Positions 1-47,872 of a DNA stretch of 64,000 bases are shown in pieces (the stretch's first letter is position 1; the number at the start of each line of letters is the position of its first letter). The position numbers and the translations under genes are program-made. The notes below the pieces were generated by a model, which saw only the letters and a list, made by a program, of their open reading frames with translations, was not told where the DNA came from and made no database searches. Source of the stretch: a bacterium (GTDB taxonomy: Bacteria; Patescibacteriota; Microgenomatia; Daviesbacterales; UBA10151); assembly GCA_021786315.1 (NCBI GenBank), contig JAJYNN010000002.1, positions 398,997 to 462,996 of the forward strand. The letters are read 5' to 3'.

Positions 1-347
1 GGATGGTTTATTAGTATCGATACCGTCCAAACTACCAGTGGGTCCGATTCGATGGTGAGCCTGGCGGGCAATGTCGACTAATCCAGAATGGATCCAGCCA
101 TCTTCTTCGCTATAAGCTCCTACTAACTTTGCCCGATCGCTCATTTCGTTAATACCAAAATTATATCCGTAGTAAGCCAAAACCATCCTCAGTGAAGTTA
201 ACCCGCAAGCCTTGCGCCCGTAAAGGTTTAAGGCATCTTCTTCTTGTTGTGAATAATATGGAATTTGTAAATCCACTTTCGTTTTTGGCTCCTGCTGATC
301 TCTGCTTTCAGCTTCAAATTTCAGCATGTTTTTTTCTCTTTCTCCCA
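1..347 (-). CDS. Peptidase C39-like (papain-fold) domain protein, 5' part only; the gene runs off the window start.
   Basis: Minus-strand translation from ATG ~347 (alternative ATG ~327) gives MGEREKNMLKFEAE...YYSQQEEDALNLYGRKACGLTSLRMVLAYYGYNFG. The CG.tSL.MvLayyG pattern matches the catalytic Cys region of C39_2-type peptidases. This ORF is absent from the ORF track because it has no stop within the window. Confidence 0.4.
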
Positions 348-992
348 TAATAATGCTTTCAGTCTTCTAATGCCATCACCTTCGTCACAGTTATAGCTAA
401 AAGACTCTAAGTCTTCCGGAAGCTGGCCATTAATAATCCGGTCAGTATGCACTCCGTTTGTTTGGGTGACTCCGCTTGAATGAGCGTAGGTTATTATACT
501 ATCTTTTGTCTCCAAAATGACAACTGTGTGTAAAATATCACCGGTGCTGTTGAGCTTGATAAAATCCCCCGGCTGGATTTCGCTAAAGCTGGAAACAGGG
601 ATGCTAAATTCATCCGAGGCAAGTTTGGCTACATTAGTCCGGCCAACGTGTGGCAGCCCAAAGGCTTCTAAATTTTTGCCTTTGGCTTCCTGGACAAGAT
701 AATTGAGCATCCGGTAAGCAAAACCGGAGCAATCGATACCGAGTTTGTTTTTCCGCATAAAATCGCGGATTTCCTCTACTGAAGCTTGATCAAGATCAAA
801 ATTTTGTTCCTTGGCGAGTTTGATGGTGGTTTCTGTTAATACTTCAGGGGAACTTTTGCCCTGGAATTCAGGGCCAATTTTTTGAAAGCTGCCTACCTCA
901 TTCCTTCTGTAAGGAGAAGGGACCCTTTTCCCGCCCAAAGGAAGCAGGAATTGGTCATAAGCTTCCCAAAGGATTTTAGAGTAATCTGACAT
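321..992 (-). CDS. Putative papain-fold cysteine peptidase (NlpC/P60- or transglutaminase-like)
   Basis: 223-aa ORF with GIDCSGFAYRM (Cys nucleophile context) and a downstream GDILHTVVI (His). It lies directly upstream of the C39-like gene on the same strand. Confidence 0.4.
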   Translation of the reverse strand: MSDYSKILWEAYDQFLLPLGGKRVPSPYRRNEVGSFQKIGPEFQGKSSPEVLTETTIKLAKEQNFDLDQASVEEIRDFMRKNKLGIDCSGFAYRMLNYLVQEAKGKNLEAFGLPHVGRTNVAKLASDEFSIPVSSFSEIQPGDFIKLNSTGDILHTVVILETKDSIITYAHSSGVTQTNGVHTDRIINGQLPEDLESFSYNCDEGDGIRRLKALLWEKEKKTC

Positions 993-1001
993 GCGGATAT
1001 T

Positions 1002-1070
1002 ATAGGGCTACCTTTTGACTTCGTCAAAACGATCCTGTAATTTCTCCCCGCATTCGCGGTCGAAATTATA
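1002..1070. repeat. Two-hairpin short repeat, full copy A (intergenic)
   Basis: TATAGGGCTACCTT-TTGACTTCGTCAAA-ACGATCCTGTAATTTCTC-CCGCATTCGCGG-TCGAAATTATA. Confidence 0.75.
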
Positions 1071-1082
1071 ACTTAGTCGAGG

Positions 1083-3041
<1,959 letters not shown>

Positions 3042-4002: not shown

Positions 4003-5706
4003 ATGGCACAGCCTGCTCAGTTTGGTATTGAAGATGTCTTATTCAAACAGGGTTTGTTAACCGCAAACCAGCTTTCTTCGATAAAGCTCGAGGCAATCAA
4101 TAGTGGCCAGTCTGCTGAGCAAATTATTGAATCCCATCAGTTAGTGCCTCCGGCTAAGATGGCAGCCGCCCGGTCTCAGCTTTTGGGTGTCCCCTTTATT
4201 AACCTGGAAGGCAAAGCTATTTCCCCTGAGGTTTTAAATTATATTCCTGAAGCCGTAGCTCGCCGTTACCGCTTGGTACCCTTTGACCGTAAAGCCGACA
4301 AGCTTTTTGTAGCTATGGCTGATCCTTTAGATCTCCAGGTTATCCAATTCATTGAGAAAAAATCCGGACTTTTTGTTAAGCCTTACCTGGCGGTTCCGGA
4401 AGATATCTTAAAGGCTGTCTCTGACCAGTACTCCCAGAACTTAACCAGTGAAGTTACCTCTGCCCTGAAGGAAGTAAACTCGATGCAGGCGCCGCACCAG
4501 GAGACTCCGGAAGAAAAGGCCGAGGTCCTTAAAGAGGCGCCGGTTGCCAACATTATCACCCAGCTTTTGGAATATGCTGTTAAGTCCCACGCTTCCGATA
4601 TTCATATCGAGCCTTTGGAGGATAAAACCCGTGTCCGTTACCGGATTGACGGTATTTTGCATGAAAAAGTGATTTTGCCCCGGGGAGTGCATGAGGCGGT
4701 AATTTCCAGGATTAAAATCTTGTCCAACTTAAAGATTGAGGAAAAGAGGTTGCCGCAAGACGGACGTTTTAGCTATACCTCCGGCAAATCTGTGTTTGAC
4801 CTCCGTGTTTCCACTGTCCCTACTATTTACGGTGAAAAGGTAGTGATGAGGTTGCTTCCTAAAAGTACTGTTGCTCCGACTCTGCAGGAGCTGGGACTGC
4901 GGGGTGTGGCTTTGAAAAACCTGGAATTTCAAATTACCCGGCCCCATGGAATCATCTTAATCTGTGGTCCTACAGGTTCCGGTAAAACCACTACCCTCTA
5001 CTCGATCCTGACTAAACTCTCTACCACTAAGGTTAACCTGGTCACTATTGAGGATCCGGTTGAGTACCAGATTCCCGGTGCAAACCAGGTCCAGGCCAAC
5101 CCTCAAATTGGTTTGACTTTTGCCCAAGCCCTCAGGTCTTTCCTGCGGCAAGACCCGAACGTTATCCTGGTGGGAGAGATTCGTGATGCGGAAACTGCCG
5201 ATTTGGCTATTCAGGCAGCCCTCACCGGCCACGAAGTGTTTTCTACCCTGCACACTAATACTGCCTCCGGTGCTCTCCCCAGGCTTTTAGATATGGGGAT
5301 GGAGCCATTCCTTTTAGCTTCCTCTATCAATGCCGTTGTCGGGCAGAGAATTTTAAGAAAGGTTTGCCAGACCTGTAAAGCGCCGTTTACTCCTCCGCCG
5401 GAGGTTGCCGACAATATCCGGAAAGTTTTAGGGAATCTGGTGCCTGCTAATAAACCAATTACTTTGTACAAAGGAGTCGGTTGCGCCAGTTGCGGGCATG
5501 TCGGTTACTCGGGCCGAATTGGAATTTTTGAGGCTCTGATTGTAACCCCTAAAATTATGAAGATGATTTTGGAGCGGACTTCTGCCCAGGAGATAGAAAC
5601 TGAGGCGATATCGGAGGGAATGATTACCTTAAAACAGGATGGGTACTTGAAGGCCTTAGAAGGCGTTACTACTTTAGAGGAGGTACTAAGGGTCGCCGAG
5701 GATTAA
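4003..5706 (+). CDS. pilB: Type IV pilus assembly ATPase PilB (GspE family)
   Basis: 567 aa. T2SE_N-like N-terminus, Walker A GPTGSGKTTTL, and the tetracysteine CQTC...CASCGH motif. Confidence 0.9.
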   Translation: MAQPAQFGIEDVLFKQGLLTANQLSSIKLEAINSGQSAEQIIESHQLVPPAKMAAARSQLLGVPFINLEGKAISPEVLNYIPEAVARRYRLVPFDRKADKLFVAMADPLDLQVIQFIEKKSGLFVKPYLAVPEDILKAVSDQYSQNLTSEVTSALKEVNSMQAPHQETPEEKAEVLKEAPVANIITQLLEYAVKSHASDIHIEPLEDKTRVRYRIDGILHEKVILPRGVHEAVISRIKILSNLKIEEKRLPQDGRFSYTSGKSVFDLRVSTVPTIYGEKVVMRLLPKSTVAPTLQELGLRGVALKNLEFQITRPHGIILICGPTGSGKTTTLYSILTKLSTTKVNLVTIEDPVEYQIPGANQVQANPQIGLTFAQALRSFLRQDPNVILVGEIRDAETADLAIQAALTGHEVFSTLHTNTASGALPRLLDMGMEPFLLASSINAVVGQRILRKVCQTCKAPFTPPPEVADNIRKVLGNLVPANKPITLYKGVGCASCGHVGYSGRIGIFEALIVTPKIMKMILERTSAQEIETEAISEGMITLKQDGYLKALEGVTTLEEVLRVAED

Positions 5707-5709
5707 ACA

Positions 5710-6768
5710 ATGAACATCCAACAACTGCTCGATTTGGCAATTACCCGTAATGCTTCTGATTTGCATTTAGTTGTGGGTTACCCGCCAATGCTAAGAATCC
5801 ACGGAGGCTTATCCCCCATTGCCGGAACACCGGTACTCACAGATGCGGAGATGGCGGCTTTGGTTTTGTCAGTGCTTACCCCTGTCCAAAAGCAGGTTTT
5901 GGAAAGTACTTTTGAACTTGATTTTGCTATTTCTTTTCAAAACAAAGCCAGGTTTAGGGTCAATGTCTTTAAGGAACAGAACCATCTTGCCTCAGCTTTC
6001 CGGCTTATACCCGTGGAGATTCCGGAACTGGAGAGTCTGGGACTTCCCCAGGTTATCTCCCGGTTAACAAACTTGCGCCAAGGTTTGATTTTAGTGACCG
6101 GCCCTACCGGCCATGGTAAGTCCACAACTTTGGCATCCATGATCAACCGGATAAATATGACCAGAAGATCCCATATTATCACCATTGAAGACCCTATTGA
6201 GTATGTTTACCCCAAAGCTAACGCTTTAATTTCCCAAAGGGAGATGTATCTTGACACTAAGACCTGGCCTAACGCTTTGCGGGCGGCTCTTCGTGAAGAC
6301 CCGGATGTGGTGTTGGTTGGCGAAATGCGTGATTATGAAACTATCGCCTCGACCATCACCATTGCCGAGACCGGCCATTTGGTCCTGGCTACCCTGCACA
6401 CGAATTCAGCAGCCCAGTCCGTGGACCGTATTATTGACGTTTTCCCGGAAAACCAACAGCCGCAGATTAGGATGCAGCTTTCCGCGGTGCTGGAAGCAAT
6501 TCTTTCCCAAAGGCTTATTCCGACAATTATCCCGGGACGGGTTTTGGCTGCTGAGCTGCTGCTGAAAACTCCGGCGTTATCCGAACTCATCAGAAGCTCA
6601 AAAACCCACCTTATAGATAACTTAATCCAAACATCGGGAGAGCTGGGAATGATTAATTTGGAAACGTCACTGGCGAAACTGGTTAAGGAAGGCAAAATAG
6701 CTATGGAGGTAGCTCAGAACTACTCGCTTAGGCCGGATTTATTAGCGAAGTTGATCGGAGGTATGTAG
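5710..6768 (+). CDS. pilT: Twitching-motility (retraction) ATPase PilT
   Basis: 352 aa. GPTGHGKSTTLASMI Walker A and the PilT-like AIRNLIRE-region equivalent. Follows pilB after 3 nt. Confidence 0.9.
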   Translation: MNIQQLLDLAITRNASDLHLVVGYPPMLRIHGGLSPIAGTPVLTDAEMAALVLSVLTPVQKQVLESTFELDFAISFQNKARFRVNVFKEQNHLASAFRLIPVEIPELESLGLPQVISRLTNLRQGLILVTGPTGHGKSTTLASMINRINMTRRSHIITIEDPIEYVYPKANALISQREMYLDTKTWPNALRAALREDPDVVLVGEMRDYETIASTITIAETGHLVLATLHTNSAAQSVDRIIDVFPENQQPQIRMQLSAVLEAILSQRLIPTIIPGRVLAAELLLKTPALSELIRSSKTHLIDNLIQTSGELGMINLETSLAKLVKEGKIAMEVAQNYSLRPDLLAKLIGGM

Positions 6769-6772
6769 CTTT

Positions 6773-7981
6773 ATGCCCATTTATAGTTATGTAGCCAAAG
6801 ATTTGCAGGGTGAATATCATAAAGGCGAGGTTGAGACAGCCGACGAGTACCAGGGCGCCCAACTTTTAAGAAGGAAGAAACTGATTGTTATCTCTCTTAA
6901 AGCCAAATCCCAAAACCAGAAGAAATTTCTGGAAAAACTATTATTCAGGGTTTCTTTTGCTGATGTGGTTATTATGACCCGGCAATTGGCCACCATGATT
7001 CAGGCGGGGTTGGTTTTATCCGAAGCTTTGGATATTCTTGAGGAACAGCAAACCAATAAAAAATTTAAGGAAGTTTTAGGGAAGATTTCTTCGGATGTTA
7101 AAGGAGGTTTGGATTTTGCAACCGCCATCGAAAAACACCCCGATGTCTTTCCCAGTCTTTACAGTAAATTAGTCCGTGCCGGACAGGCTTCCGGAAAGAT
7201 GGATACAATCCTGTTGGAGTTGGCAGCGAACCTGGAAAAAGAACGAAGCTTCAAAAGTAAGGTTCGGGGAGCCATGATTTATCCTATTGTGGTTATTACC
7301 ATGATGTTTGCCGTGATGCTCATTATGGTTTTCTTTGTTATGCCAAAGCTTATGAGCTTGTATAGTGAATCAGGCATCGATCTCCCCCTGCCTACCAAGA
7401 TTATGTTGGCATTTGCCAACTTAGCCATTAACTTTTGGTGGTTGGGAATAATCATTGCTGTTATGGTGGTTGCCGGAGTCAGGCGTTTTCTCTCTACTCC
7501 CACAGGGAGGCTATTTTTTGACAAAATGATACTCAAGATCCCGGTTGTCGGTAAGGTTACATCCTTGGTTATCCTGACAAATTTTACCAGGACTTTTGGT
7601 TTACTTGTTGCTTCAGGTTTACCCATGCTGGAATCAATTAAAATTGTGAGCAATATTGTTGGAAACCTGGCTTTTAAGGAAAGTTTGGATGTGGCTTACA
7701 AAGGTGTGGAAAGAGGTTTGACTTTTTCCAGCCAGCTGATGGCTTTGCCGGTGTTTCCCAGAATTATTGGCCAGATGATAAAAACTGGTGAAGAAACCGG
7801 AAAACTGGATGACATTGTTTTCCGTTTAGCCGACTACTTTGAATCTGAAGCGGACAATGCTTTAAAGAATATTACTACCCTGATTGAACCGATTATTTTG
7901 GTGGTTTTGGGTGTTGGCGTTGCCCTTTTGGTTGTTTCCATAATTCTTCCGATCTATCAATTGACTACGAGTGTGAAATAG
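6773..7981 (+). CDS. pilC: Type IV pilus inner-membrane platform protein PilC (GspF family)
   Basis: 402 aa, duplicated GspF domains with 3 TM segments. Its position after pilB/pilT supports the call. Confidence 0.85.
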   Translation: MPIYSYVAKDLQGEYHKGEVETADEYQGAQLLRRKKLIVISLKAKSQNQKKFLEKLLFRVSFADVVIMTRQLATMIQAGLVLSEALDILEEQQTNKKFKEVLGKISSDVKGGLDFATAIEKHPDVFPSLYSKLVRAGQASGKMDTILLELAANLEKERSFKSKVRGAMIYPIVVITMMFAVMLIMVFFVMPKLMSLYSESGIDLPLPTKIMLAFANLAINFWWLGIIIAVMVVAGVRRFLSTPTGRLFFDKMILKIPVVGKVTSLVILTNFTRTFGLLVASGLPMLESIKIVSNIVGNLAFKESLDVAYKGVERGLTFSSQLMALPVFPRIIGQMIKTGEETGKLDDIVFRLADYFESEADNALKNITTLIEPIILVVLGVGVALLVVSIILPIYQLTTSVK

Positions 7982-8058: not shown

Positions 8059-8565
8059 TTGAAGAAAACTGCCCGAGGTTTTACACTCGTTGAGCTTCTT
8101 GTAGTTATTGCTATTATCGCCATTTTAGCTGCGGTGGTAGTGTTAATTATTAATCCTATTGAACTTACAAAACGTAGCCGAGATGCAGCCAGACTTACAG
8201 ATTTAGCTAACTTGCAGCAGGCCATTAACGTCGCTGCTCAGGAAGCAACTGCTTCTGGCGCTGCCATTCTTTGTTCAGGGACCACTGCTCCGTGTCAAGG
8301 TGACTCTAAAGCAGATGGCCGTGCCTCTGATGGTAGCGGTTGGGTGAAAGTTAATCTTTCTGCCCAAAAGAGCGTTTCAGTTCCGACTTTGCCAATTGAC
8401 CCGATCAATGACGATACATATAAGTACAGCTATTACTCCGATGGGAATGCATGGGAGATTAATGCCGTGCTTGAGTCAGATCAACAAAAAGGCAAGATGA
8501 GTACTGACGGAGGTAACAATGATAATGCTTACGAGGTCGGTTCAAACCTGACCTTGTTACCATAA
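8059..8565 (+). CDS. pilA: Type IV pilin (prepilin with class III signal peptide); likely the major pilin
   Basis: TTG start preceded by the RBS AAGGAGGTGAGG. MKKTARG|FTLVELLVVIAIIAILAAVVV N-terminus with a C-terminal Cys pair. Confidence 0.8.
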   Translation: MKKTARGFTLVELLVVIAIIAILAAVVVLIINPIELTKRSRDAARLTDLANLQQAINVAAQEATASGAAILCSGTTAPCQGDSKADGRASDGSGWVKVNLSAQKSVSVPTLPIDPINDDTYKYSYYSDGNAWEINAVLESDQQKGKMSTDGGNNDNAYEVGSNLTLLP

Positions 8566-8566
8566 T

Positions 8567-9466
8567 ATGATACCGGCAGTCTTTGGGTTTGTATTAGGAG
8601 CGGTTTTAGGAAGCTTTATTCAAGCAACTGCCGGTAGGATAATTTCTGGAAAAACGTTGAGGGGAAGGTCGTATTGTCTAAGTTGTAAGCATACCCTTAG
8701 GTGGTACGACCTCTTTCCGGTTTTGTCTTATTTAACACTGCGCGGCAGATGCCGCTATTGCCACAAAAGGATTCCGGTTGAGGATTTTTTAGTAGAGATA
8801 ATTATAGCAACGGTTTATGCTCTTCTTTTTTGGGTGAATGTTCCTCAAAGTATTATTTATAACTTCCAACCGGGTTTGTCTTTTACTCTATTCCTTTTAG
8901 ACTTAATTTTTAAAGTATTTATAACCGGAATATTTGCCTTGGTGTTTCTAATCGACCTTAAGTCGGGTCTGATACCGAATGTGGTCACTTATCCGTCTAC
9001 AGTTATAACGATTGTTTATTTACTGGTCTCAAATTTAGTTAAGACCTTAAGTTTTTATCAGGGTTTTCGGGGAAGCCCGTTGGCGAAATACTTAATGCCT
9101 CCCGAATCCAGCTATGTGTATGACCACCTGCTTCGGATTTGGACGCCGCTCGCCTGGACATCGATTGCAGCTGTCACCATAACTTTGATCTTTGTGCTTT
9201 TAATAGTGGTCACAAAAGGCCGGGGTATGGGTTGGGGTGATGTTAAATATGTTTTCTTATTAGGGTTGGCCTTGGGGTTTCCGGATATTATTCCGGCAAT
9301 CTTTATCGCCTTTTTGTCCGGAGCTGTCTTCTCATTATTCCTAATTTTGTTGAGGAAAAAGACTTTTGGCCAAACTGTACCCTTTGGTCCTTTCTTAAGT
9401 TTAGGCGCGATTATTGCTCTACTTTTTGGCACTCAGATTATCAGGATTTACATAGGGATTTTTTAA
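8567..9466 (+). CDS. pilD: Prepilin peptidase / N-methyltransferase PilD (A24 family)
   Basis: 299 aa polytopic membrane protein with the zinc-binding CLSC...CRYC motif in the first cytoplasmic loop. Confidence 0.85.
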   Translation: MIPAVFGFVLGAVLGSFIQATAGRIISGKTLRGRSYCLSCKHTLRWYDLFPVLSYLTLRGRCRYCHKRIPVEDFLVEIIIATVYALLFWVNVPQSIIYNFQPGLSFTLFLLDLIFKVFITGIFALVFLIDLKSGLIPNVVTYPSTVITIVYLLVSNLVKTLSFYQGFRGSPLAKYLMPPESSYVYDHLLRIWTPLAWTSIAAVTITLIFVLLIVVTKGRGMGWGDVKYVFLLGLALGFPDIIPAIFIAFLSGAVFSLFLILLRKKTFGQTVPFGPFLSLGAIIALLFGTQIIRIYIGIF

Positions 9467-11044: not shown

Positions 11045-11581
11045 ATGAATCTGCCTGAAGTATCTAAAAATTCCCGAAGATCCTGTCAAAGTGAAGCCAA
11101 AGGCTTCACTTTGATTGAGCTTATGGTGGCAATTTCTATTATTGCCCTGTTGTCTATTATTGCCCTGTCTGCATTTTCCAGTGTTCAAAAAAGTTCACGG
11201 GATGCAAAGAGGAAATCAGACTTGGGGACCGTCCGGGGAGCTTTAGAACAATACCGTGCCGACCAGCACAATTACCCGGTTAGTGGGAATGTCGGCATTG
11301 GCAACCTTTCCAGTTATTTACCTGATAAGGCTTTAACTAATCCTGCAGCCACAGTCACCTATTTGAATAAATACCCCCGTGACCCCAAATATTCTACTGG
11401 CGGCTGCAGTATTTTGCCCTGTTATAAATACTACTATCAGGCATTGCCCAATGGTTGCAATAATACTACGACTACCTGCAACAGTTATTGCCTCTTTGAC
11501 AGCACGGAAAGCAATGGCAATGCAACAATGGATCCGGCTTGCTCCAATGCCATGTTCAATTACTCAATTACTGCACCATGA
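11045..11581 (+). CDS. Type IV pilin paralog with a long leader and a Cys-rich C-terminal domain
   Basis: ...SRRSCQSEAKG|FTLIELMVAISIIALLSIIAL. The leader DNA contains AAGATCCTGTCAA, which resembles the conserved core of the two-hairpin repeat family. Confidence 0.65.
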   Translation: MNLPEVSKNSRRSCQSEAKGFTLIELMVAISIIALLSIIALSAFSSVQKSSRDAKRKSDLGTVRGALEQYRADQHNYPVSGNVGIGNLSSYLPDKALTNPAATVTYLNKYPRDPKYSTGGCSILPCYKYYYQALPNGCNNTTTTCNSYCLFDSTESNGNATMDPACSNAMFNYSITAP

Positions 11582-12156
11582 GAAAAAACGGATTTAGTGT
11601 GAAGCGCGAAGCCAAGGGTTTCACCCTTGTGGAACTAATGGTGGTAGTCGGAATAATGGGAATTTTGGCTGCTGTGTTGTTACCCCAGCTTGGCAATTTC
11701 AACCGTTTTCAAAGCCTCCAAGCTGCTGCAAACGAGCTTCAAACAAATTTTAGAAGAACGCAAAACAATGCGGCTAGCGGCGTTTCCTGTTCTGCTTCTG
11801 TAAGGGCGACAGATTGGCATTTATTGATTACCGACTCTTCGCACTACTCTATCGCTCCAACGTGTGCCGGTGCTACTTCCACCACCTATACCTTGCCCCG
11901 AGGCATAAAAATTTATAGTGCGTCTCTCGATTCCTGCGAGACTGTTGCTACCGGCAATGGCATTAATTTGTCTAATTTTGGTGTTGCCTACAATAATATT
12001 TCTGCGGCTGTAAACTTCCAAAGTGGAAATACAGGATGTTTAGTCTCCTCCTCCTCAAAACAATCGATCATAAAGTTATTTTTAGATAACGATACCAGCA
12101 AATACATTAAAGTCATAGTTGAAAGAGGCGGTTCTGTCTACTTAAGCTCCAACTAA
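11578..12156 (+). CDS. Minor pilin / pseudopilin (GspH/FimT-like); start at the internal ATG of track ORF 11539..12156
   Basis: MRKNGFSVKREAKG|FTLVELMVVVGIMGILAAV prepilin N-terminus. Confidence 0.6.
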   Translation: MRKNGFSVKREAKGFTLVELMVVVGIMGILAAVLLPQLGNFNRFQSLQAAANELQTNFRRTQNNAASGVSCSASVRATDWHLLITDSSHYSIAPTCAGATSTTYTLPRGIKIYSASLDSCETVATGNGINLSNFGVAYNNISAAVNFQSGNTGCLVSSSSKQSIIKLFLDNDTSKYIKVIVERGGSVYLSSN

Positions 12157-12232: not shown

Positions 12233-12811
12233 ATGAAAAAAACTGCCTCAAAATTCCTCGATACTTCTGGTCAAAGCTTGGTTGAAGTTTTGGTTGCTCT
12301 CACTGTTGCGGCTTTAGTTATTTTAGCTCTGGTTGTGGTTTCGTTAATGGGGCTTAAAAATGCCCAGTTTGCCCAAAATCAGGCAAAAGTGACCAAGTAT
12401 GCCCAGGAAGCAATTGATCAAGTTAGGGCGATCAGGGATAGGAATGGGAATGTAACCTTTCAGAATAACCTGTCTAACCCGGCTTGTACTCCCTGTAGCG
12501 GCAATACTTGCGCTTTTTCCGGGTTGTGGAGCTGTCAACTTACAAAATCCAGCGGATCTCCCTGTACTTTATCTCCCGGAAATGGATGTTACTTAGTGCT
12601 TTCCGCAGATGGAACTAGCCTGAGCGAACCGAGCAGTCTAAATAATGCGAACCAAAATTTAGGTGATGGTTTTTCTAGACAGGTAATTTTGGAAGATGGT
12701 GCTCCCGCTTTGGATTATTCAAAAGAAAAACGGGTAAGGGTTGTAGTCACTTGGACGGATTCCTCAGGAACGCATGAGTCAAATGTCCAAACAATTTTAA
12801 CTAAACATTAA
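12233..12811 (+). CDS. Minor pilin (PilV-like); start at the internal ATG of track ORF 12212..12811
   Basis: MKKTASKFLDTSGQS|LVEVLVALTVAALVILAL, a prepilin-like N-terminal helix. Confidence 0.5.
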   Translation: MKKTASKFLDTSGQSLVEVLVALTVAALVILALVVVSLMGLKNAQFAQNQAKVTKYAQEAIDQVRAIRDRNGNVTFQNNLSNPACTPCSGNTCAFSGLWSCQLTKSSGSPCTLSPGNGCYLVLSADGTSLSEPSSLNNANQNLGDGFSRQVILEDGAPALDYSKEKRVRVVVTWTDSSGTHESNVQTILTKH

Positions 12812-13476
12812 TGAAGCAAAAAGGTTTTAGTGCGAAGCGCGAAGTCAAGGGCTTCACCTTGATTGAAATACTAGTAGTCATGTCTATCATGGCTGTTTTG
12901 GGCTTAATTTTTACCAATACTTTGGTACAAACTTTAAGAAACCAAAATAAAGTTCGGGTAGTAAATCAGGTAAAACAAAATGGCCAGGTTGGCCTGGACC
13001 GGATATCCAATGAGATTCGCCAGGCAGAAAGGGTTTTTTGTATTAACGATAACCAGGCAAATACAGATACTCTTATTCTTTTCCGGCAGGGAGTTTATAC
13101 AAGGATCCGCTTTGCTGCACCTTCCCCTGCAAATAACCCTACTGCTAACGGCTATATTTCCATTGATTATCCTGATGCTGCCAATGCTGACTGCAACGGC
13201 GCTCAGTCTTTACCCCAGTCCCTGACAGATCAGGACACTAAAAATGGAGTGTCTATAGACTTTAATCCCTTAACTGCTGGGTTCCCGAAACTTCGTGATC
13301 CTCTCGTTTCTGATAAGATATTTACTAAGAACTCATTGCCGGGTTACCCTGACACAATAAACATTAAGTTCAGGGCCACTAGCGGGGTGTCAGCAGGCCG
13401 GATGTTTGAAAACCTGGTGTCGGATAACGGTGTCTTATTCGATACTACGGTGGAAGTAAGAGGAGGAAGAATGTAA
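12811..13476 (+). CDS. Minor pilin (PilW-like)
   Basis: MKQKGFSAKREVKG|FTLIEILVVMSIMAVLGLIF. The leader is near-identical at DNA level to that of the 11578 gene. Confidence 0.55.
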   Translation: MKQKGFSAKREVKGFTLIEILVVMSIMAVLGLIFTNTLVQTLRNQNKVRVVNQVKQNGQVGLDRISNEIRQAERVFCINDNQANTDTLILFRQGVYTRIRFAAPSPANNPTANGYISIDYPDAANADCNGAQSLPQSLTDQDTKNGVSIDFNPLTAGFPKLRDPLVSDKIFTKNSLPGYPDTINIKFRATSGVSAGRMFENLVSDNGVLFDTTVEVRGGRM

Positions 13477-14396
13477 TGTTTCAAAAAGGACAAACAATCA
13501 TTATTTTACTTTTGGTGGTGGTTATCGCTTTGGGTATTGGTTTGACTGTGGTTGGCCGAAGCATTACTGAAATTTCTACCTCCACAAAAACAGAGGAATC
13601 TACCCGAGCCTTTGCGGCAGCAGAAGCCGGGATCGAACGCGCACTTTCAAGGAATTCCGGGATAGGCCAAGGAAGCGCCGGGAATTTGAGTTTGGGAAGC
13701 TCTGATTTGACTAATCAATCCAGTGCCGATGTCAGCTGGAACCCGCTTTTGCCTGACACCAGTTTGGCTTTAGAATACCCGCCATTCGGCAAAGAAAGTT
13801 TCGCCCAGGTTTGGCTGGCAGATCCAATCCACTCAACAAACGGATACCCGAACGCATCTTATAACCAGAATAATTTTGATATTTATTTCGGCAAGATTGA
13901 TGATACCTATTACGCAGCAAATCCTGACCAAAAACCTGCTATTGAGGTTGTGGTTGTTTACCGTGACGGAAATAATTTTAATAGTATCAGCAATTTCTAT
14001 GATTCTTATTCCGGTACGAATCCCAGCAGCAGGAACAACAGTTTTTCCGGATGCGCTGCCTTAAAGCCTGCAAGCATAGTAACTAATCAAAACTCTAATT
14101 CAGGGAGAATTTTTTATTGTCAGGTTCATATCACGGGTTTTCCTTATAACGTTGGAGCAAACCAGTATCCGGTGATGGCGAGGATAAGAGTTTTGTACAG
14201 CAATATTAGCCACCCCGTGGCTCTCCAGCCTACCGGAGGCTCATCCCTGCCACGGCAGGTTGCAATTTTCACCTCGACTGGTGAGTCCGGAGGAGCACAG
14301 AAAACTATACGAACTATCCAGGTTTTCCAGCAAAAATCCGTCATGCCTAACCTTTTTAACTATGCACTATTTTCTGCAGGAGCACTAAACAAATGA
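13476..14396 (+). CDS. PilX-like pilus assembly protein (PilX N-terminal domain)
   Basis: N-terminal TM segment followed by RAFAAAEAGIERAL, typical of PilX_N. 306 aa. Confidence 0.55.
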   Translation: MFQKGQTIIILLLVVVIALGIGLTVVGRSITEISTSTKTEESTRAFAAAEAGIERALSRNSGIGQGSAGNLSLGSSDLTNQSSADVSWNPLLPDTSLALEYPPFGKESFAQVWLADPIHSTNGYPNASYNQNNFDIYFGKIDDTYYAANPDQKPAIEVVVVYRDGNNFNSISNFYDSYSGTNPSSRNNSFSGCAALKPASIVTNQNSNSGRIFYCQVHITGFPYNVGANQYPVMARIRVLYSNISHPVALQPTGGSSLPRQVAIFTSTGESGGAQKTIRTIQVFQQKSVMPNLFNYALFSAGALNK

Positions 14397-14854
14397 CGAC
14401 AAAAAAAGAAAAGGGCTTCACCCTTGTAAGGCTACCTTCGCTTCGCGAACGATCTTGCAAGGGCTTTACCCTTGTGGAAGTGATGTTGGCGGTGGCGGCG
14501 GTTATCTTTTTAGGCTTTTTAGTTATGAGTCTGCCTTCGGCAATCTCTTCAATTAACCGGAGCAGGCACACTTCAATTGCAAAAGACATCGCCAGCCGTC
14601 AAATCGAAAAACTAAGAGAACAGACTTACGCTAATTTAGCCAACGGTACCAGCTCGTTTACCGATTCGGATTTGGATAGTCTGAATCAATCTTCTGCTTC
14701 CTACGAAATTGAAGACTGCCCCTCAAGTGTTTGTACGGACATTGGCGTTTATAAATTAAAACAGGTAAAAGCTTCAGTTTCTTGGAATGAATTAGGTGAT
14801 AATAAAAAAGTGGAGATGACTACACTTGTTGGTGAAGGAGGAATAGGACAATGA
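14393..14854 (+). CDS. Pseudopilin-like protein whose leader carries a repeat insertion that duplicates the KG|FTL site
   Basis: MTTKKEKGFTLVRLPSLRERSCKGFTLVEVMLAVAAVIFLGF. The RLPSLRERSC segment is encoded by hairpin 1 of the two-hairpin repeat. Confidence 0.5.
   Translation: MTTKKEKGFTLVRLPSLRERSCKGFTLVEVMLAVAAVIFLGFLVMSLPSAISSINRSRHTSIAKDIASRQIEKLREQTYANLANGTSSFTDSDLDSLNQSSASYEIEDCPSSVCTDIGVYKLKQVKASVSWNELGDNKKVEMTTLVGEGGIGQ
14428..14458. repeat. Two-hairpin repeat, partial copy E (hairpin 1 only) inside a pseudopilin leader, flanked by a 17-bp imperfect direct repeat
   Basis: AAGGGCTTCACCCTTGT-aAGGCTACCTTCGCTTCGCGAACGATCTTGC-AAGGGCTTTACCCTTGT. Confidence 0.6.
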
Positions 14855-15498
14855 GGAAATTTTCAATTTTCAATTTTCAATTTTCAAATTCTGGTTTTAC
14901 CTTGGCGCGAAGTGCCAAAGGGAATTCTTTGGGATTCACTTTGGTGGAAACTTTAGTCGCTTCAGGAGTGGCCTTGATAGTGGGCACCCTATTGGTAGGA
15001 ATTTTAGTCAACCACAGTGGTTTGTCTTACAAAGAAAATGCCTTGGTAAACGAAGGCTTAAGCTTAAATGATGCTATGGGTAAGATTGACAACAATATCC
15101 GGGAATCTGCAGCGGTGGCAATCGGCTACCCGGAAAGTACCCCAACTTATACAACAGGAAACTCTGTTCTAGTGCTAAAGCTTCCCGCCCTATCCTCCTC
15201 CGGAACTATAGAAAACGTTTACGATTATGCGGTTATTGCCGCAGATATAACCCAACCAAAGGTGCTCCGGCTCCAAATTTTTCCCGATTCCCAAAGTATC
15301 CGCCAGCCGGCAAATACTGTGCTCACTACCCTCCTCAATTCCGTTACATTTAATTATTTAGACAGGAATGGAAATAGTGTAACTCCGGCAGATGCTTTTA
15401 AGGTTTCGGTTAATTTATCAGTTCTTTCGCAGACTGGGTCTATTGGTTCAAGCCGGTCGTCGGTTTCGACGACATCACTGAGGAACTATTCAAAATAA
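14851..15498 (+). CDS. Pseudopilin-like protein with an extended leader
   Basis: MRKFSIFNFQFSNSGFTLARSAKGNSLG|FTLVETLVASGVALIVG. Contains four AATTTTC repeats and the palindrome TTGGCGCGAAGTGCCAA. Confidence 0.5.
   Translation: MRKFSIFNFQFSNSGFTLARSAKGNSLGFTLVETLVASGVALIVGTLLVGILVNHSGLSYKENALVNEGLSLNDAMGKIDNNIRESAAVAIGYPESTPTYTTGNSVLVLKLPALSSSGTIENVYDYAVIAADITQPKVLRLQIFPDSQSIRQPANTVLTTLLNSVTFNYLDRNGNSVTPADAFKVSVNLSVLSQTGSIGSSRSSVSTTSLRNYSK
14858..14885 (+). repeat. Perfect tandem heptanucleotide repeat (AATTTTC)x4 in codons 3-11 of the pseudopilin gene
   Basis: aattttcaattttcaattttcaattttc read directly from the sequence. A unit length of 7 means copy-number change would shift the reading frame. 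Confidence 0.8.
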
Positions 15499-17297: not shown

Positions 17298-18329
17298 ATG
17301 TCTGCCGAATATGCTGTTGGAGTCGATATTGGATCATCCTCAATTAAAGCTGTGGTCCTCTCCCACAAAGGCAATACTCCTAAATTAATTTCATTTGGTT
17401 CTATTGCCGCCCCTTCCCCCGGAATCACTTCGGACAATCCGGTTGACTTGGAAATGGAAGCCAAAGCGATTAAAACGTTAATTGCCTCGATCAAGTCTCC
17501 AACTACTTCTGTTGTTATAGCTCTGCCGGAATCGAAGATTTTTACCAGGGTTATTGAAGATTTGCCGTTTCTTTCAGATGAGGAATTGGCTTCAGCCATC
17601 CGCTACTCCGCCGAAGAGTTTGTTCCTTTGCCGGCTGACCAGGTAAATCTTTATTGGCAGGTAATTAACCGTTCAAAGCAGCAAAATTTTACTTCAGTTT
17701 TTGTCATTGCCTCACCTAAAAACACCGTTAATAAATACCTGAAGGTTTTAGATTTGGCAGGATTGAAGCCCCAGGCGTTAGAAACTGAGTTAATCGCCGC
17801 AACCAGGGCATTAGTCGGCAACAACCAGTATGCCCCAACTACAATGATCATTAACTTTGGCGCCGGATCGACAGATTTTGCGGTTGTTTCTAAAGGAACG
17901 ATCCAACTTACCAGATCGATTGGTACCGGTGGCTTAGCCTTAACCCGGGCAATTTCCCAATACCTTAATTTTGAGCCCATGCAAGCTGAAGAATACAAAA
18001 AAGTTTATGGACTATTGGAGGACCAGCTTGGAGGCAAAATCTACCAGGTTTTAAAACCTCTGGTGGATGTCATTGCCTCCGAAGCCCAAAGGGTGGTCCA
18101 GGCTTATCAAACAAAGAACCCCCAAAACCACATAAAACGGGTTGTTTTGGCCGGAGGAGGAGCAAAGCTTCCGGGGTTGGTCATCTATCTGGCAAATGTC
18201 TTAGGTTTGGAAATTCAGGAAGCGGATCCTTGGTATTTTATTGAAAAGGACAATAATATTCTACCCAAACAACTTGCTGAAGCTATCCAATATACTGTTG
18301 CTGTAGGGCTGGCGCTAAGAACAGAGTAG
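17298..18329 (+). CDS. pilM: Type IV pilus assembly protein PilM (actin-like ATPase fold)
   Basis: 343 aa. VGVDIGSSSIKAVVL phosphate-1 motif and GAGSTDF, the actin/HSP70 fold motifs. Confidence 0.85.
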   Translation: MSAEYAVGVDIGSSSIKAVVLSHKGNTPKLISFGSIAAPSPGITSDNPVDLEMEAKAIKTLIASIKSPTTSVVIALPESKIFTRVIEDLPFLSDEELASAIRYSAEEFVPLPADQVNLYWQVINRSKQQNFTSVFVIASPKNTVNKYLKVLDLAGLKPQALETELIAATRALVGNNQYAPTTMIINFGAGSTDFAVVSKGTIQLTRSIGTGGLALTRAISQYLNFEPMQAEEYKKVYGLLEDQLGGKIYQVLKPLVDVIASEAQRVVQAYQTKNPQNHIKRVVLAGGGAKLPGLVIYLANVLGLEIQEADPWYFIEKDNNILPKQLAEAIQYTVAVGLALRTE

Positions 18330-30215: not shown

Positions 30216-30995
30216 ATGGGATTTTCCGGGGTTATTTTAGCAGGCCTATTTTTATCAGAACTCTTTATCTTATTCTTTCTTTCTCGATTTTTAACCAAAT
30301 CACTCTCACGGGTTTTATATGCCGTGACCCGAAGCCGGAAAGTAACGGTCTATCTTCTGGCAATTATCTTTTTGCCGGGAACAATTATTCACGAGCTGGC
30401 CCACTTTTTATCTGCGGAGATGATGTTGGTGCCAACCGGAGATATTGATATTTTCCCGGAAATAGGGCTACCTTCCGACGTGCGTCGGAACGATCCTGTA
30501 ATTTCTCGAGGACTCGAAATTATTGAAGAAAAAAGTATTCGCTTGGGTAGTATCCAAGTTGGGCAAACTGATATGGTCAGAAGGTTTCTTATCGGTGTGG
30601 CACCCGTTGTTGTCGGGCTGGGTTTAATCTTTGGGGTTTTGTGGGTCATGCAGGAGCATCTTTTGGGAAGCTTGTCTTTTTGGCAACAGACGTTGGCTTT
30701 TTATACGGTTTTTGTGATTTCCAACAATATGTTTTCCAGTAAAAAGGACATGGAAGGGGCAGCAGCATTTTTAGTGGCAATATTTGCTGTCTCGGCTTTG
30801 GTTTTGGGAGTACTGTACTTTACCGGAAATCTTGATTTTGGATTTATTTTCCGGAAATTAGAAGCTTCGGAACTTGTAAATTTCTTTCAAAAGGTAGATC
30901 AGTTTTTGGTCGTTCCCTTAGGTTTGGATGTGGCAATTTTAGGATTGGCTACAGTTTTGACAGGGATAAGTCGAAAGGCAAAGAGCCTAATTTAA
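30216..30995 (+). CDS. Polytopic membrane protein with an HExxH motif (putative zinc metalloprotease-like) carrying an in-frame repeat insertion
   Basis: 259 aa. HELAH lies in a TM context. Residues 83-103 (IGLPSDVRRNDPVISRGLEII) are encoded by a full copy of the two-hairpin repeat. Confidence 0.5.
   Translation: MGFSGVILAGLFLSELFILFFLSRFLTKSLSRVLYAVTRSRKVTVYLLAIIFLPGTIIHELAHFLSAEMMLVPTGDIDIFPEIGLPSDVRRNDPVISRGLEIIEEKSIRLGSIQVGQTDMVRRFLIGVAPVVVGLGLIFGVLWVMQEHLLGSLSFWQQTLAFYTVFVISNNMFSSKKDMEGAAAFLVAIFAVSALVLGVLYFTGNLDFGFIFRKLEASELVNFFQKVDQFLVVPLGLDVAILGLATVLTGISRKAKSLI
30462..30524. repeat. Two-hairpin repeat, full copy B, in frame inside CDS 30216..30995
   Basis: ATAGGGCTACCTT-CCGACGTGCGTCGG-AACGATCCTGTAATTTCTC-GAGGACTC-GAAATTATT. 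Inserts 21 codons. Confidence 0.75.
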
Positions 30996-35673: not shown

Positions 35674-35749
35674 AGATTTAATATACTATATTTAAATGTC
35701 CTTGACGCACTTTTAGTTTCTCCCTTACAATATATCGTTGGAAAAAGTT

Positions 35750-35789
35750 TATAGGGCTACCTTCGCTTCGCGAACGATCCTGTATTATA
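35750..35789. repeat. Two-hairpin repeat, short copy D (hairpin 1 plus truncated core) 10 bp upstream of the atpB start
   Basis: TATAGGGCTACCTT-CGCTTCGCG-AACGATCCTGTA-TTATAA. Confidence 0.7.
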
Positions 35790-46028: not shown

Positions 46029-47807
46029 GTGTTGTCATCACTCAGGCGTCGGTTCCAAGTACCAAGTCTTCTGGGCAGGTATTGGCGAATCCTCAAGCCA
46101 TTTCGGGGAGTTTATACAAAGTGTATCTTACTTCTTTTGGCTTACGAAGGTATCCAAATCCTAGGGTCTTACCAGATGAGCATGATGATCAGGCTCTTTG
46201 GAGATAAGGCCAACTACTGGTGGTGGGTGCTCTTTTTTGTCGGGTTGGTAATCTACGATGAAACGTTCATCCGGTTAGACAACCTGCTGGATTGGCACAT
46301 CATCATCAGGCAGAACTATCCCCTATACCGTTATTTGAAGCTGGGGGCCATCAAAAAGTTCCTGCAAATGGACATTGATTGGCACCAGAAACACAATAGC
46401 GGAGCCTTGGTGGGCAAGGTTGCCCAGGGCGTGGAAAAGGTTGAGGACATTATGGGTATGATCTGGATAGAGTTTATACCAACAACTATCCAGGCTGTCT
46501 TTTCCCTAATTCCTCTTCTCTTTATCTCACCGCTCGCAGTGGCGATCTCGGCACTTTCTTTCCTGTTGTTTGTCAGGTTCAGCCTAAAAAACAACAAAGA
46601 AAGAAGACCGTCCAAGGAAAGGCGGTTTGACCTTTACGAGACGGAATGGCATCGCTCGATTGAGATCGTCCAGTCGGTGGAAACCAACTATATGTTTGGC
46701 CAGACTGACAGGTTGATCAATGAGCAGGCAGATCTTCACCAGGAAATCATGGATATAGGCAGGAAGGAGGCACATCGCGGGATATACCACTACAACAGGC
46801 TTGAGCTACGGATTATCCGTTTTGCCCGGGTGGCAATCCTGGGAATCTGGGGGTACCAACTAATCAATGGAGGTATGGATATTCCTACTCTCATCTTTGT
46901 CTACACGCTAACCGAAAGGCTCTTTTCTAGTTTTTGGAGGTTCTCCAGACTCATTGAAAAGACATCGGAATCAGCAGAAGGGGCAAACAGATTGGCCAAT
47001 CTCCTCGAAGAGGAAACAGGCCATGAAGCGGAAGGTGAGGTTACCACGCCCAAAACTCAACCCGTGGGGGTCGAGTTGAAAGGGGTCCGTTTCACTTACA
47101 AAAAGGAATACGACGAGGAGCAAGACGGATTACATGATGTAACTCTGGATATTCCTGCAGGAAGCGTAGTGGCACTGGTTGGCCCATCAGGTGCCGGGAA
47201 GACGACAATTCGGAAAATTGTCACCGGTCTGATGGAAATCCAAGGAGGAGATATTCGTGTTGGAGGTGTAAGTGTTAAGGACTGGGACCCGGAGAAGCTG
47301 TTGGAGCAATTCTCATATGTTCCTCAAGGGGACGACGTGTTCTTATTCAACGGAACCGTCAGGGACAATATTGCCTTTGCTAGGCCCAAAGCTTCTATGG
47401 AGGAAGTTGAAAGGGCGGCGGTATTGGCAGGTATCCATGACTTTATTATGTCCATGGCAGAAGGTTACGAGACCGTCGTTGGTGAACGCGGAAAAAGGCT
47501 ATCAGGAGGACAAAAGCAAAGAGTAGCACTGGCACGGGCAATCCTAGCTGATCGGCCAGTCCTTATCTTGGACGAAGCCACAAGTGCAGTGGATGCTATT
47601 ACTGAGGAGGAAATCCAACAAAAAATGGCGGAAATTCTCCATGGAAAAACCTCCATCATTATTGCCCATAGACTTTCCACTGTTTGGGACATTGCGAATA
47701 AAATCGTTGTTCTGGAACGTGGTCGAAAAGTCGAAGAGGGCACGCATGCCGAATTGATGGCGTTAAATGGTCTCTACAGCAAAATGGCGCTGTTGCAGAC
47801 CAAATAG
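46029..47807 (+). CDS. ABC exporter, fused permease and ATP-binding protein
   Basis: 592 aa. GTG start after AAAGGAGG. Walker A GPSGAGKTT, signature LSGGQKQRVALARA, Walker B LILDEATSAVD. The stop codon is supplied by the first bases of a repeat copy. Confidence 0.85.
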   Translation: MLSSLRRRFQVPSLLGRYWRILKPFRGVYTKCILLLLAYEGIQILGSYQMSMMIRLFGDKANYWWWVLFFVGLVIYDETFIRLDNLLDWHIIIRQNYPLYRYLKLGAIKKFLQMDIDWHQKHNSGALVGKVAQGVEKVEDIMGMIWIEFIPTTIQAVFSLIPLLFISPLAVAISALSFLLFVRFSLKNNKERRPSKERRFDLYETEWHRSIEIVQSVETNYMFGQTDRLINEQADLHQEIMDIGRKEAHRGIYHYNRLELRIIRFARVAILGIWGYQLINGGMDIPTLIFVYTLTERLFSSFWRFSRLIEKTSESAEGANRLANLLEEETGHEAEGEVTTPKTQPVGVELKGVRFTYKKEYDEEQDGLHDVTLDIPAGSVVALVGPSGAGKTTIRKIVTGLMEIQGGDIRVGGVSVKDWDPEKLLEQFSYVPQGDDVFLFNGTVRDNIAFARPKASMEEVERAAVLAGIHDFIMSMAEGYETVVGERGKRLSGGQKQRVALARAILADRPVLILDEATSAVDAITEEEIQQKMAEILHGKTSIIIAHRLSTVWDIANKIVVLERGRKVEEGTHAELMALNGLYSKMALLQTK

Positions 47808-47872
47808 GGCTACCTTCGGCTTCGCCGAACGATCCTGTAATTTCTCTCCGCCAAAAGCGGATCGAAATTATG
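47805..47872. repeat. Two-hairpin repeat, full copy C; its first bases form the stop codon of the ABC exporter
   Basis: ATAGGGCTACCTT-CGGCTTCGCCG-AACGATCCTGTAATTTCTC-TCCGCCAAAAGCGGA-TCGAAATTATG. Confidence 0.75.

Follow-up and report, generated by a model that had tools for sequence, protein, structure and literature searches.

We describe here a short, structured repeat that has entered the coding region of a minor pilin (pseudopilin) gene in a bacterium of the Daviesbacterales. The gene lies in a 64,000-nucleotide stretch of contig JAJYNN010000002.1 (assembly GCA_021786315.1, positions 398,997 to 462,996, forward strand), which we call the window; positions given without a locus name are counted from its first letter. 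The pilin gene itself occupies 14393..14854 on the plus strand and encodes 153 amino acids, as supported by the list of open reading frames (ORFs), a Pfam N_methyl match and 16 aligned orthologues. Comparison with those orthologues shows that its predicted class III signal peptide grew from about 8 to 24 residues through a lineage-specific, in-frame insertion of 48 bp. Taken as a whole, the explanation that we consider probable is that a member of a dispersed hairpin family inserted into the cleavable leader and that its target was duplicated. A preliminary description of the window, made from the letters alone, had centered on just such a hairpin-repeat insertion doubling the prepilin-peptidase site, and that claim is supported by the family membership of the insert, by empty sites in relatives and by target duplications that recur at other copies.

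The translation of ORF 14393..14854 opens with MTTKKEKGFTLVRLPSLRERSCKGFTLVEVMLAV, and the N-terminus can be written MTTKKEKGFTLV-RLPSLRERSC-KGFTLVEVML, which confirms the two KGFTLV sites of the preliminary description. Residues MTTKKEKG (14393..14416, plus strand), which run up to the first Gly, are the likely ancestral leader, judged from the leaders of orthologues and from the ATGA overlap seen in locus L008. The upstream direct repeat, AAGGGCTTCACCCTTGT (14411..14427, plus strand), codes for KGFTLV and contains the first, non-canonical G|F site, and the downstream repeat, AAGGGCTTTACCCTTGT (14459..14475, plus strand), codes for the KGFTLV of the canonical G|FTLVE recognized by Pfam N_methyl. 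The two 17-mers are identical at 16 of 17 positions, recur with a period of 48 nt (16 codons) and outscore 200 of 200 shuffles; the 17-bp imperfect repeat and the repeat–spacer–repeat layout given in the preliminary description therefore stand, except that the spacer, AAGGCTACCTTCGCTTCGCGAACGATCTTGC, is 31 nt long rather than 30 (one A had been omitted). Because there is no in-frame ATG, GTG or TTG between the two G|F sites, and because the ATG shares the sequence ATGA with the stop codon of the upstream PilX_N-like gene (an overlap that is identical in orthologous loci, including L008), the long leader is translated. Seven contigs, which come from several samples, encode exactly this protein, so the doubled leader is no assembly artefact; the metagenomes SRR13178629 and SRR22746126 both contain the identical gene. 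On its own, the 17-mer at 14411-14427 forms a hairpin whose stem has 5 bp (AAGGG/CCCTT) and which was reported for the minus strand. The KGFTL-coding 15-mer AAGGGYTTYACCCTT, found at 14411-14425 and at 11613-11627, is an inverted repeat (AAGGG-CTTCA-CCCTT) because its Lys codon AAG and Leu codon CTT are mutually reverse complementary, and the DNA of the cleavage site forms a small hairpin in several pilin genes.

The added 16-residue block is missing, and no duplication is seen, in all 16 orthologues (36-73% identity), whose leaders have 7-9 residues (for example MKKDHSEKG, MMKRSEGG and MKKSQAG). DNA alignment with the two closest loci, L025 and L008, reveals an empty site that lacks the 48 nt and has conserved sequence on both sides, and synteny around the gene is kept in the relatives' loci, with no extra pilin gene there. 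Had the leader merely diverged in the ordinary way, related pilins would be expected to show it too, and neither the 16 proteins nor the two DNA alignments do. We regard ordinary divergence of the leader, or a chance likeness with no insertion event at all, as extremely unlikely: leader length does range from 7 to about 24 residues among orthologues, but the match to the covariance model described below (E=1e-10), the 16/17 repeat that outscores every shuffle and the empty site in the closest orthologous DNA together refute it.

The insert belongs to a family of hairpins. The covariance model for this family, R1, was built from 17 copies, leaving out the pilin copy and its closest relative (W3, below). 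R1 nevertheless finds the pilin copy as a 34-nt extended hairpin, module 1 of the element, at 14426..14459 on the plus strand (36.8 bits, E=1.3e-10), aligned over model positions 1-38, which is the full model, with every pair standard. The hairpin comprises a GUAAGG/UCUUGC stem, an internal loop and a CGC-UUC-GCG apical stem, and it reads in frame as (V)RLPSLRERSC; it carries the boxes GGGCUACCUU and AACGAUCCUGUA along with the basal helix and the covarying apical stem that characterize module 1, and it folds like the consensus (-9.2 kcal/mol). Its four deviations from the consensus make up two compensatory pairs in the basal helix, one A-U to G-C and the other G-C to A-U, and 31 of 34 positions agree between 14424-14457 and 35749-35782. 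The spacer had been called hairpin 1 of a repeat family, and on this evidence it is a full-length, correctly folding member.

Across the family, module 1 spans 34-44 nt. Its parts are the basal helix AUAGGG/UCCUGU, one internal loop, one C-G and two U-A pairs, and an apical stem specific to each copy. Its boxes GGCUACCUU ... AACGAUC and the basal helix are conserved, and the apical stem covaries. Module 2 is a second hairpin, GUAAUUUC...GAAAUUAU, and modules 3-4 add ~80-100 nt to three copies that adjoin tRNA genes and are homologous between two of these (L004 and L006); the element occurs in modular forms of 34 nt, about 60 nt and about 150 nt. Standard pairs fill 97.1% of the pair cells in 16 sequences, compared with 82% after column shuffling (0 of 500 shuffles reach the observed value) and 33-48% when the pairing partner is slid, and each of the four apical pairs has undergone 6-8 double (compensatory) changes. 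Rfam 15 returned only a tRNA-Tyr for the whole window at the gathering threshold; the copy W4 had no match at E<=10, and five loci searched at E<=1 gave only tRNAs and chance matches. A phage-type promoter at TATAGGG was considered and dropped, as the sequence upstream of it is unconserved.

The window holds 5 copies by a two-box scan (GGGCTACCTT, AACGATCCTGTA), where 0.15 are expected in shuffled sequence, and R1 run over the whole window with filters off finds nothing below E=0.2 beyond these five. All are on the plus strand, though the flanking genes are on both strands; GC skew as an explanation for this was weak and uninformative. Besides the pilin copy they are W1 (1002..1069, 61.1 bits), a two-module copy between gyrB (1083-3041, minus strand, by Pfam) and ORF 321-992 (minus strand) and antisense to both; W2 (30462..30523, 57.7 bits), a two-module copy in frame in ORF 30216-30995, which encodes an HExxH membrane protein; W3 (35751..35784, 48.1 bits), a short form with the same apical stem as the pilin copy, in the 5′ untranslated region (UTR) of gene 35800; and W4 (47804..47871, 58.4 bits), a two-module copy that starts with the TAG terminating the ABC-transporter ORF 46029-47807 and that has a predicted fold of -23.7 kcal/mol (z=-3.35). 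W3 is located 16 nt before the ATG of gene 35800 and downstream of a promoter-like TTGACG-18-TACAAT (35702-35731). Gene 35800 is the apparent first gene of a candidate ATP-synthase cluster, and a Shine-Dalgarno sequence between W3 and its ATG is not obvious.

Outside the window, at least 20 further copies are found in contigs of Daviesbacteria or Microgenomates. An exact-pattern scan of species-representative genomes found 7 loci, 5 in metagenome-assembled genomes (MAGs) of Candidatus Daviesbacteria and 2 in MAGs labelled Gammaproteobacteria, and the same kind of scan of metagenomes gave 10 more. The two MAGs titled 'uncultured Gammaproteobacteria' (loci L001 and L003) have perfect copies of the element, which may reflect mis-binning or a mislabelled taxon. 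A pattern scan of IMG/VR viral contigs gave 0 matches and thus no sign of an origin as a phage attP site.

The pilin gene is not the only coding region into which the element has gone in frame. W2 adds exactly 20 residues, IGLPSDVRRNDPVISRGLEI, to a conserved protein, and none of the 11 aligned homologues has them. In locus L001, a two-module copy at 4990-5050 adds 19 residues, GLPSPSVNDPVISRRLEII, to an Mn/Fe superoxide dismutase (ORF 4552-5232), which, by comparison with Bacillus SodA (2rcv), separate the KLE(T/I) strand from the NTPNQDSP motif; HMMER aligns the KLEI strand of this protein twice because the end of the element encodes a look-alike, RLEI. One frame, (I/V/L)(G/R)LPS, is common to all of the translated copies, that is, those in the pilin, the HExxH protein, the superoxide dismutase and the upstream ORFs (uORFs) of lepA and rplC described below, and the first three are cases of recurrent in-frame insertion into unrelated genes.

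Of the two G|F sites in the pilin leader, the second looks like the one that is processed. By the established rules, the cleavage site of a class III signal peptide has Gly in position -1, Phe in position +1 and Glu in position +5, and a hydrophobic helix comes next. The second site, G24|F25, has all of these (Glu+5 is encoded at 14477-14479, and about 20 hydrophobic residues follow, KG|FTLVEVMLAVAAVIFLGFLVMSL), and the Pfam N_methyl match covers residues 20-35 only (nucleotides 14450-14497; 1.3e-06, above the family cutoff). At the first site, G8|F9, there is no N_methyl match, position +5 is Arg, a charged stretch, FTLVRLPSLRERSCKG, comes after G8, and the residues that follow the site, VRLPSLRERSCKG, include neither Glu+5 nor a hydrophobic helix. 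The locus encodes a type IV pilin system that includes a family A24 prepilin peptidase, PilD (8567..9466, plus strand; Pfam A24_N_bact 1e-24, Peptidase_A24 4.9e-10), and PilM_2 at 17298-18326; T2SSE and T2SSF are present in the syntenic loci. As Glu+5, the hydrophobic helix and the N_methyl match are all found only at the second G|F, the insert falls in the part that PilD should remove, and we infer from the motifs that cleavage occurs there and that the whole insert is discarded with the leader.

Whether the duplication belongs to the insertion can be judged from the other copies. For 21 non-redundant copies we compared the 70 nt upstream of the element with the 260 nt downstream, using 200 shuffles each. 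Significant direct repeats (0/200 shuffles) flank the pilin copy (17 nt), two copies at lepA (26-27 nt), one at rplC (about 35-38 nt) and the copies at tRNA-Trp and tRNA-Gly, where the repeats are exact and correspond to the last 17 nt of the tRNA; at tRNA-Asp the repeat is borderline (9-11 nt). A 17-nt length is therefore common to three independent cases (pilin, tRNA-Trp and tRNA-Gly), and the upstream repeat always stops 0-2 nt before GGGCTACC. The tRNA-adjoining copies are long forms that lie past the tRNA 3′ end on the opposite strand: L004 7188-7360 at tRNA-Trp (the same sequence as L016 and L021) and L005 2989-3162 at tRNA-Gly, each with its exact 17-nt duplicate of the tRNA end, and L006 2796-3300 at tRNA-Asp, with a duplicate of 9 nt. 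In the lepA copies, which represent two lineages (L002 2734-2840 and L017 3600-3710, minus strand), and in the rplC copy (L003 6750-6860), it is a gene start that has been duplicated upstream of the element: the first 9-12 codons are repeated on its 5′ side, and the duplicate plus the element form a uORF whose TGA overlaps the real ATG (ATGA). In L006, a small ORF cassette lies between tRNA-Asp and the element and is edged by a decayed fragment of the tRNA end.

The 48-bp insert consists of one complete repeat module plus a second copy of its 17-bp target, AAGGGCTTYACCCTTGT, and the duplication would have arisen within the insertion event itself. The insertion process would fix the GGGCTACC end of the element beside the target and copy a target stretch of variable length to the other side; since KGFTLV is what the duplicated 17 bp encode, the leader has come to carry two Gly|Phe cleavage motifs. 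Such an insertion may have been tolerated because it retained the stop-free 'LPS' frame, as in the other translated copies, and because it lies wholly upstream of the canonical G24|FTLVE, where it would be removable with the leader by the peptidase encoded at 8567-9466. The insert is probably neutral or nearly so.

Several observations weigh against this explanation. Most of the copies, 14 of 21, have no flanking repeat, and the 6-7 of 21 that have one show lengths of 9, 17, 17, 17, 27 and about 35-38 nt; the two copies inserted in frame in the other ORFs are among those without. This variable length and frequent absence do not fit a classical transposase with a fixed stagger. The reading of the pilin repeats as a target-site duplication, proposed at the outset, thus holds in that duplication at the GGGCTACC end recurs, but its transposase sense is not established. 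Among the 30 ORFs of the window that were scanned with Pfam, in a genome of 0.94 Mb, none encodes a transposase, reverse transcriptase or integrase/recombinase. The two repeat copies at lepA differ only at third codon positions (10 of 10 differences), and in one lineage a Lys-to-Arg change is shared by both copies, a pattern not expected if a simple duplication had decayed neutrally. The upstream 17-mer of the pilin matches the paralogue at 11613 just as well (16/17) as it matches the downstream 17-mer of the same gene. Finally, the choice of the cleaved G|F site is itself deduced from motif rules.

The repeats at tRNA ends could also suggest site-specific, att-type recombination, in which the element would be a miniature integrative element moved by an integrase and the repeats would be its attL and attR cores, one copy of the target end having been brought in by the element itself. 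Prophages and islands at tRNA 3′ ends, SXT in prfC, and phage 21 and e14 in icd are flanked by repeats that correspond to the end of the target gene and leave that gene intact, and in the icd and prfC systems the displaced copy of the gene end differs at synonymous sites. The exact match of the tRNA-Trp and tRNA-Gly repeats to the last 17 nt of the tRNA would fit this, as would the tRNA-end fragments that bound both the ORF cassette and the element at tRNA-Asp in L006, and the lepA and rplC cases, where the intact gene end is on the variable side of the element and the displaced copy is synonymously different. Unlike those systems, however, the element has only 31-150 nt between the repeats, no integrase and many different targets. 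The targets number at least six and would require as many integrase specificities, a 31-nt insert is too small for arm sites or a recombinase gene, the 17 nt are set against the T-loop in a different register in each of the two tRNAs, and neither the scanned window ORFs nor the viral contigs offered an integrase or a match, respectively. We consider an integrase-mediated origin very unlikely.

A different source for the duplication would be that the 5′ ends of paralogous pilin genes exchanged sequence by ectopic recombination or gene conversion, such that the two KGFTLV sequences come from different paralogues: a segment made up of the element plus KGFTLVE... would have been copied from the leader or 5′ UTR of another pilin gene, with the junction after the recipient's own GFTLV. 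The locus contains at least 10 pilin genes with a common GGNTTYACNYTNRTNGA, one of which, at 11613, supplies the 16/17 match already mentioned. Moreover, the GF(T/S) copies in 14393, 14851, 12811, 11578 and the L010 pilin at 5898 differ almost only at third codon positions, and genes 11578 and 12811, which belong to different pilin families, have the same leader insert, which hints at exchange between paralogues. Nonetheless, duplications occur at the same end of the element in the single-copy targets tRNA-Trp, tRNA-Gly, lepA and rplC; R1 finds the element in no second pilin gene of the window, and the relatives' loci have the same gene order and no additional pilin. Conversion is therefore an unlikely origin for the 14393 leader, and element insertion with target duplication remains our preferred explanation for it.

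The other extended leaders in the locus may plausibly have come from sequence exchange among the 5′ ends of paralogous pilin genes. Three of them (14851, 12811 and 11045) are lineage-specific expansions relative to the syntenic loci L008 and L010. The 14851 leader, MRKFSIFNFQFSNSGFTLARSAKGNSLG|FTLVE (14851..14949, plus strand), corresponds to MRG|FTLLE and MRENG|FTLLE in orthologues at syntenic loci; its N-terminus, MRKFSIFNFQFSNSGFTLARSAKGNSLGFTLVE, contains a first GFTL (14893-14904), the palindrome TTGGCGCGAAGTGCCAA (14902-14918) and a second G|FTLVE (14932-14949). It had been thought to follow the same pattern as 14393, which is right insofar as two GFTL sites have a palindrome between them, but R1 gives no match and the same repeat is not shown to be involved. 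This leader also contains a perfect tandem repeat, (AATTTTC)x4.3, at 14858-14887, which the orthologues lack and which is a candidate slipped-strand on/off switch, because the 7-nt unit is not a multiple of three and a change in copy number shifts the frame. The 12811 leader, MKQKGFSAKREVKG|FTLIE (12811..12867, plus strand), has ~27 nt extra at 12829-12855 compared with MKRNG|FTLIE in L008, and of the 40 proteins returned (the query and 39 homologues), it alone has two G-F-[ST] sites. The 11578 leader, MRKNGFSVKREAKG|FTLVE (11578..11634, plus strand), has the same architecture and is likewise a lineage-specific insertion; the two read MRKNGFSVKREAKGFTL (11578) and MKQKGFSAKREVKGFTL (12811), their DNA is 71% identical over 91 nt and each contains GAAGCGCGAAG, in keeping with the near-identity reported earlier. 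The 11045 leader is MNLPEVSKNSRRSCQSEAKG|FTLIE, compared with MKQSLKG|FTLVE in its orthologue at a syntenic locus.

With R1, no match at E<=10 is found in 11045-11640, 12811-12870 or 14851-14950, where there are only loose resemblances by eye, and no member of the family is found in the relatives' pilin loci; neither the 14851 palindrome nor GAAGCGCGAAG turned up in any further meaningful copy when searched for. One of those relatives' loci, L026, includes a homologue of 12811 (P0163) with a 60-nt in-frame leader insert between AATGGG repeats (645-735). This insert contains GGGCT...GCGATCC...TCGAAT, which recalls the boxes of the element, and does not score with the covariance model. In L010, a pilin gene at 5898-5965 has a doubled motif, MKNNRRFTLSERSKSKG|FTLVE, where a near-identical paralogue at L010 6394 has MKNKG|FTLVE, so a doubled FTL leader is not unique to the window. 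Elsewhere in the window, ORF 24816-29681 (minus strand, 1621 residues) has no Pfam match at E<=0.001.

Many copies of the element have a precise relationship to gene starts. It ends exactly at the start codon (...AAAUU-AUG) of rpoA, rpsK, adk, map and rpsQ (all in L022), rpmC (L019), frr (L018) and rplE (L015), and atpB is also among the genes whose start codon it directly precedes. The five copies in L022, at 4551-4594, 5692-5735, 7508-7544, 8123-8166 and 13893-13950 on the minus strand, are spread over 14 kb of a ribosomal-protein/secY-adk-map-rpoA operon; all are in the sense orientation, each ends at the start codon of the next gene, and the Shine-Dalgarno sequence lies in the 3′ strand of hairpin 2, an arrangement that looks like an intercistronic RNA device. 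Overall, 17 of 21 copies are in the sense orientation, which together with the start-codon positions suggests a role at the RNA level in addition to mobility.

These habits bear on the possibility that the pilin hairpin, and perhaps the doubled site, is now functional and retained by selection, either as an mRNA structure 30 nt into the coding region, which would tune how the minor pilin is translated or how stable its message is, or as part of a two-step processing of the leader. The four deviations of the pilin copy are all compensatory and keep the basal helix, and in one of them the partner of an element base comes from the target (it is the G of GT), suggesting adjustment after insertion; the sense bias, the start-codon copies and the five copies of L022 point the same way. 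The compensatory changes could, however, predate the insertion in an unsampled source copy, the orthologues all manage without the hairpin, and the first site has neither Glu+5 nor a hydrophobic segment. We therefore doubt that selection explains the retention of the insert, and prefer to see it as a nearly neutral passenger of the leader.

The same features can be drawn together in a broader and more speculative proposal, to which we give only a small chance: that the repeat is more than selfish DNA, namely a self-propagating RNA leader or translation-initiation cassette of bacteria of the candidate phyla radiation (CPR), spreading via an RNA or single-stranded intermediate. Its native position would be the one in which it stops right at a start codon and hairpin 2 holds the Shine-Dalgarno sequence. 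Its 5′ end (..TA|GGGC) would be fixed and its 3′ end variable, giving one, two or four modules and sometimes including flanking gene sequence. Landing in the first codons of a gene would duplicate the gene start, and the gene would survive by termination-reinitiation (ATGA) or, as in the pilin, by leader cleavage. An end that is precise, an opposite end truncated module by module and target duplications that vary in length amount to a target-primed signature like that of short interspersed elements (SINEs); to our knowledge, such insertion is not known for small bacterial repeats. Three other mechanisms were set aside: translational bypassing (a take-off codon with an in-frame stop is missing), a diversity-generating retroelement (the differences do not single out adenines) and CRISPR-type repeat duplication.

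Long leaders are in themselves nothing unusual for some pilins, as type IVb, Tad and Com pilins have leaders of 15-30 residues whose last residue is Gly and, after it, a hydrophobic N-terminus that contains Glu5. Unlike in those families, the long leader here is no family trait (orthologues have 3-9 residues) and results from a recent insertion that repeats the cleavage motif. Among known repeats, Rickettsia palindromic elements (RPEs) are short structured repeats found in intergenic DNA and also, in frame and translated, in unrelated genes (PMC10969869). Like them, the element is structured, has no transposase gene, occurs in intergenic DNA and is translated in unrelated genes (the pilin, the HExxH protein and the superoxide dismutase). 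It is set apart from RPEs, which are about 100-150 bp long, by its 34-nt, about 60-nt and about 150-nt forms and its host from a different phylum (CPR, Patescibacteria), and also by the long target duplications of some copies and the position of many others exactly at start codons, in sense.

Bacterial MITEs (transposable elements of miniature size with inverted repeats) such as Correia, ERIC, RUP and BOX are non-autonomous, hairpin-forming and multi-copy, and they sometimes form in-frame fusions (PMC10969869). The element differs from these in having no true terminal inverted repeats, no fixed-length target duplication and no known parent insertion sequence, and in that one end is precise and the other modular or variable. 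Its termini pair only as an RNA-type helix, since the basal helix needs G-U pairs to form, and do not qualify as inverted repeats. REP/BIME elements with a RAYT and PATEs derived from IS200/IS605 are marked by a gene for a partner Y1 (HUH) transposase, a conserved tetranucleotide beside the hairpin and strand-specific copies; in the window, CTAC sits 5′ of the hairpin, all five copies are on the plus strand, and the 30 scanned ORFs include no HUH transposase. By analogy, then, we would describe it as a small, non-autonomous structured repeat that inserts in frame and whose behavior is closest to that of RPEs. We found neither an element of this kind in CPR bacteria nor doubled prepilin sites described in the literature.

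Mobile structured repeats have been thought scarce in tiny genomes such as those of CPR bacteria. Here, such a host harbors a previously uncatalogued structured repeat family with strong covariation and no Rfam match, one copy of which has landed in a cleavable pilin leader and left the peptidase motif doubled, while others sit at gene starts and tRNA ends. In practical terms, annotators of such genomes should not 'correct' pilin start sites and leader lengths to the closest G|F. If the element does act at the RNA level, it would represent a new cis-regulatory motif, and if its insertions are target-primed, it would represent a new class of bacterial mobile element. For the pilin itself, the finding suggests that a cleaved signal peptide can offer a small mobile hairpin a free landing zone within a coding region.

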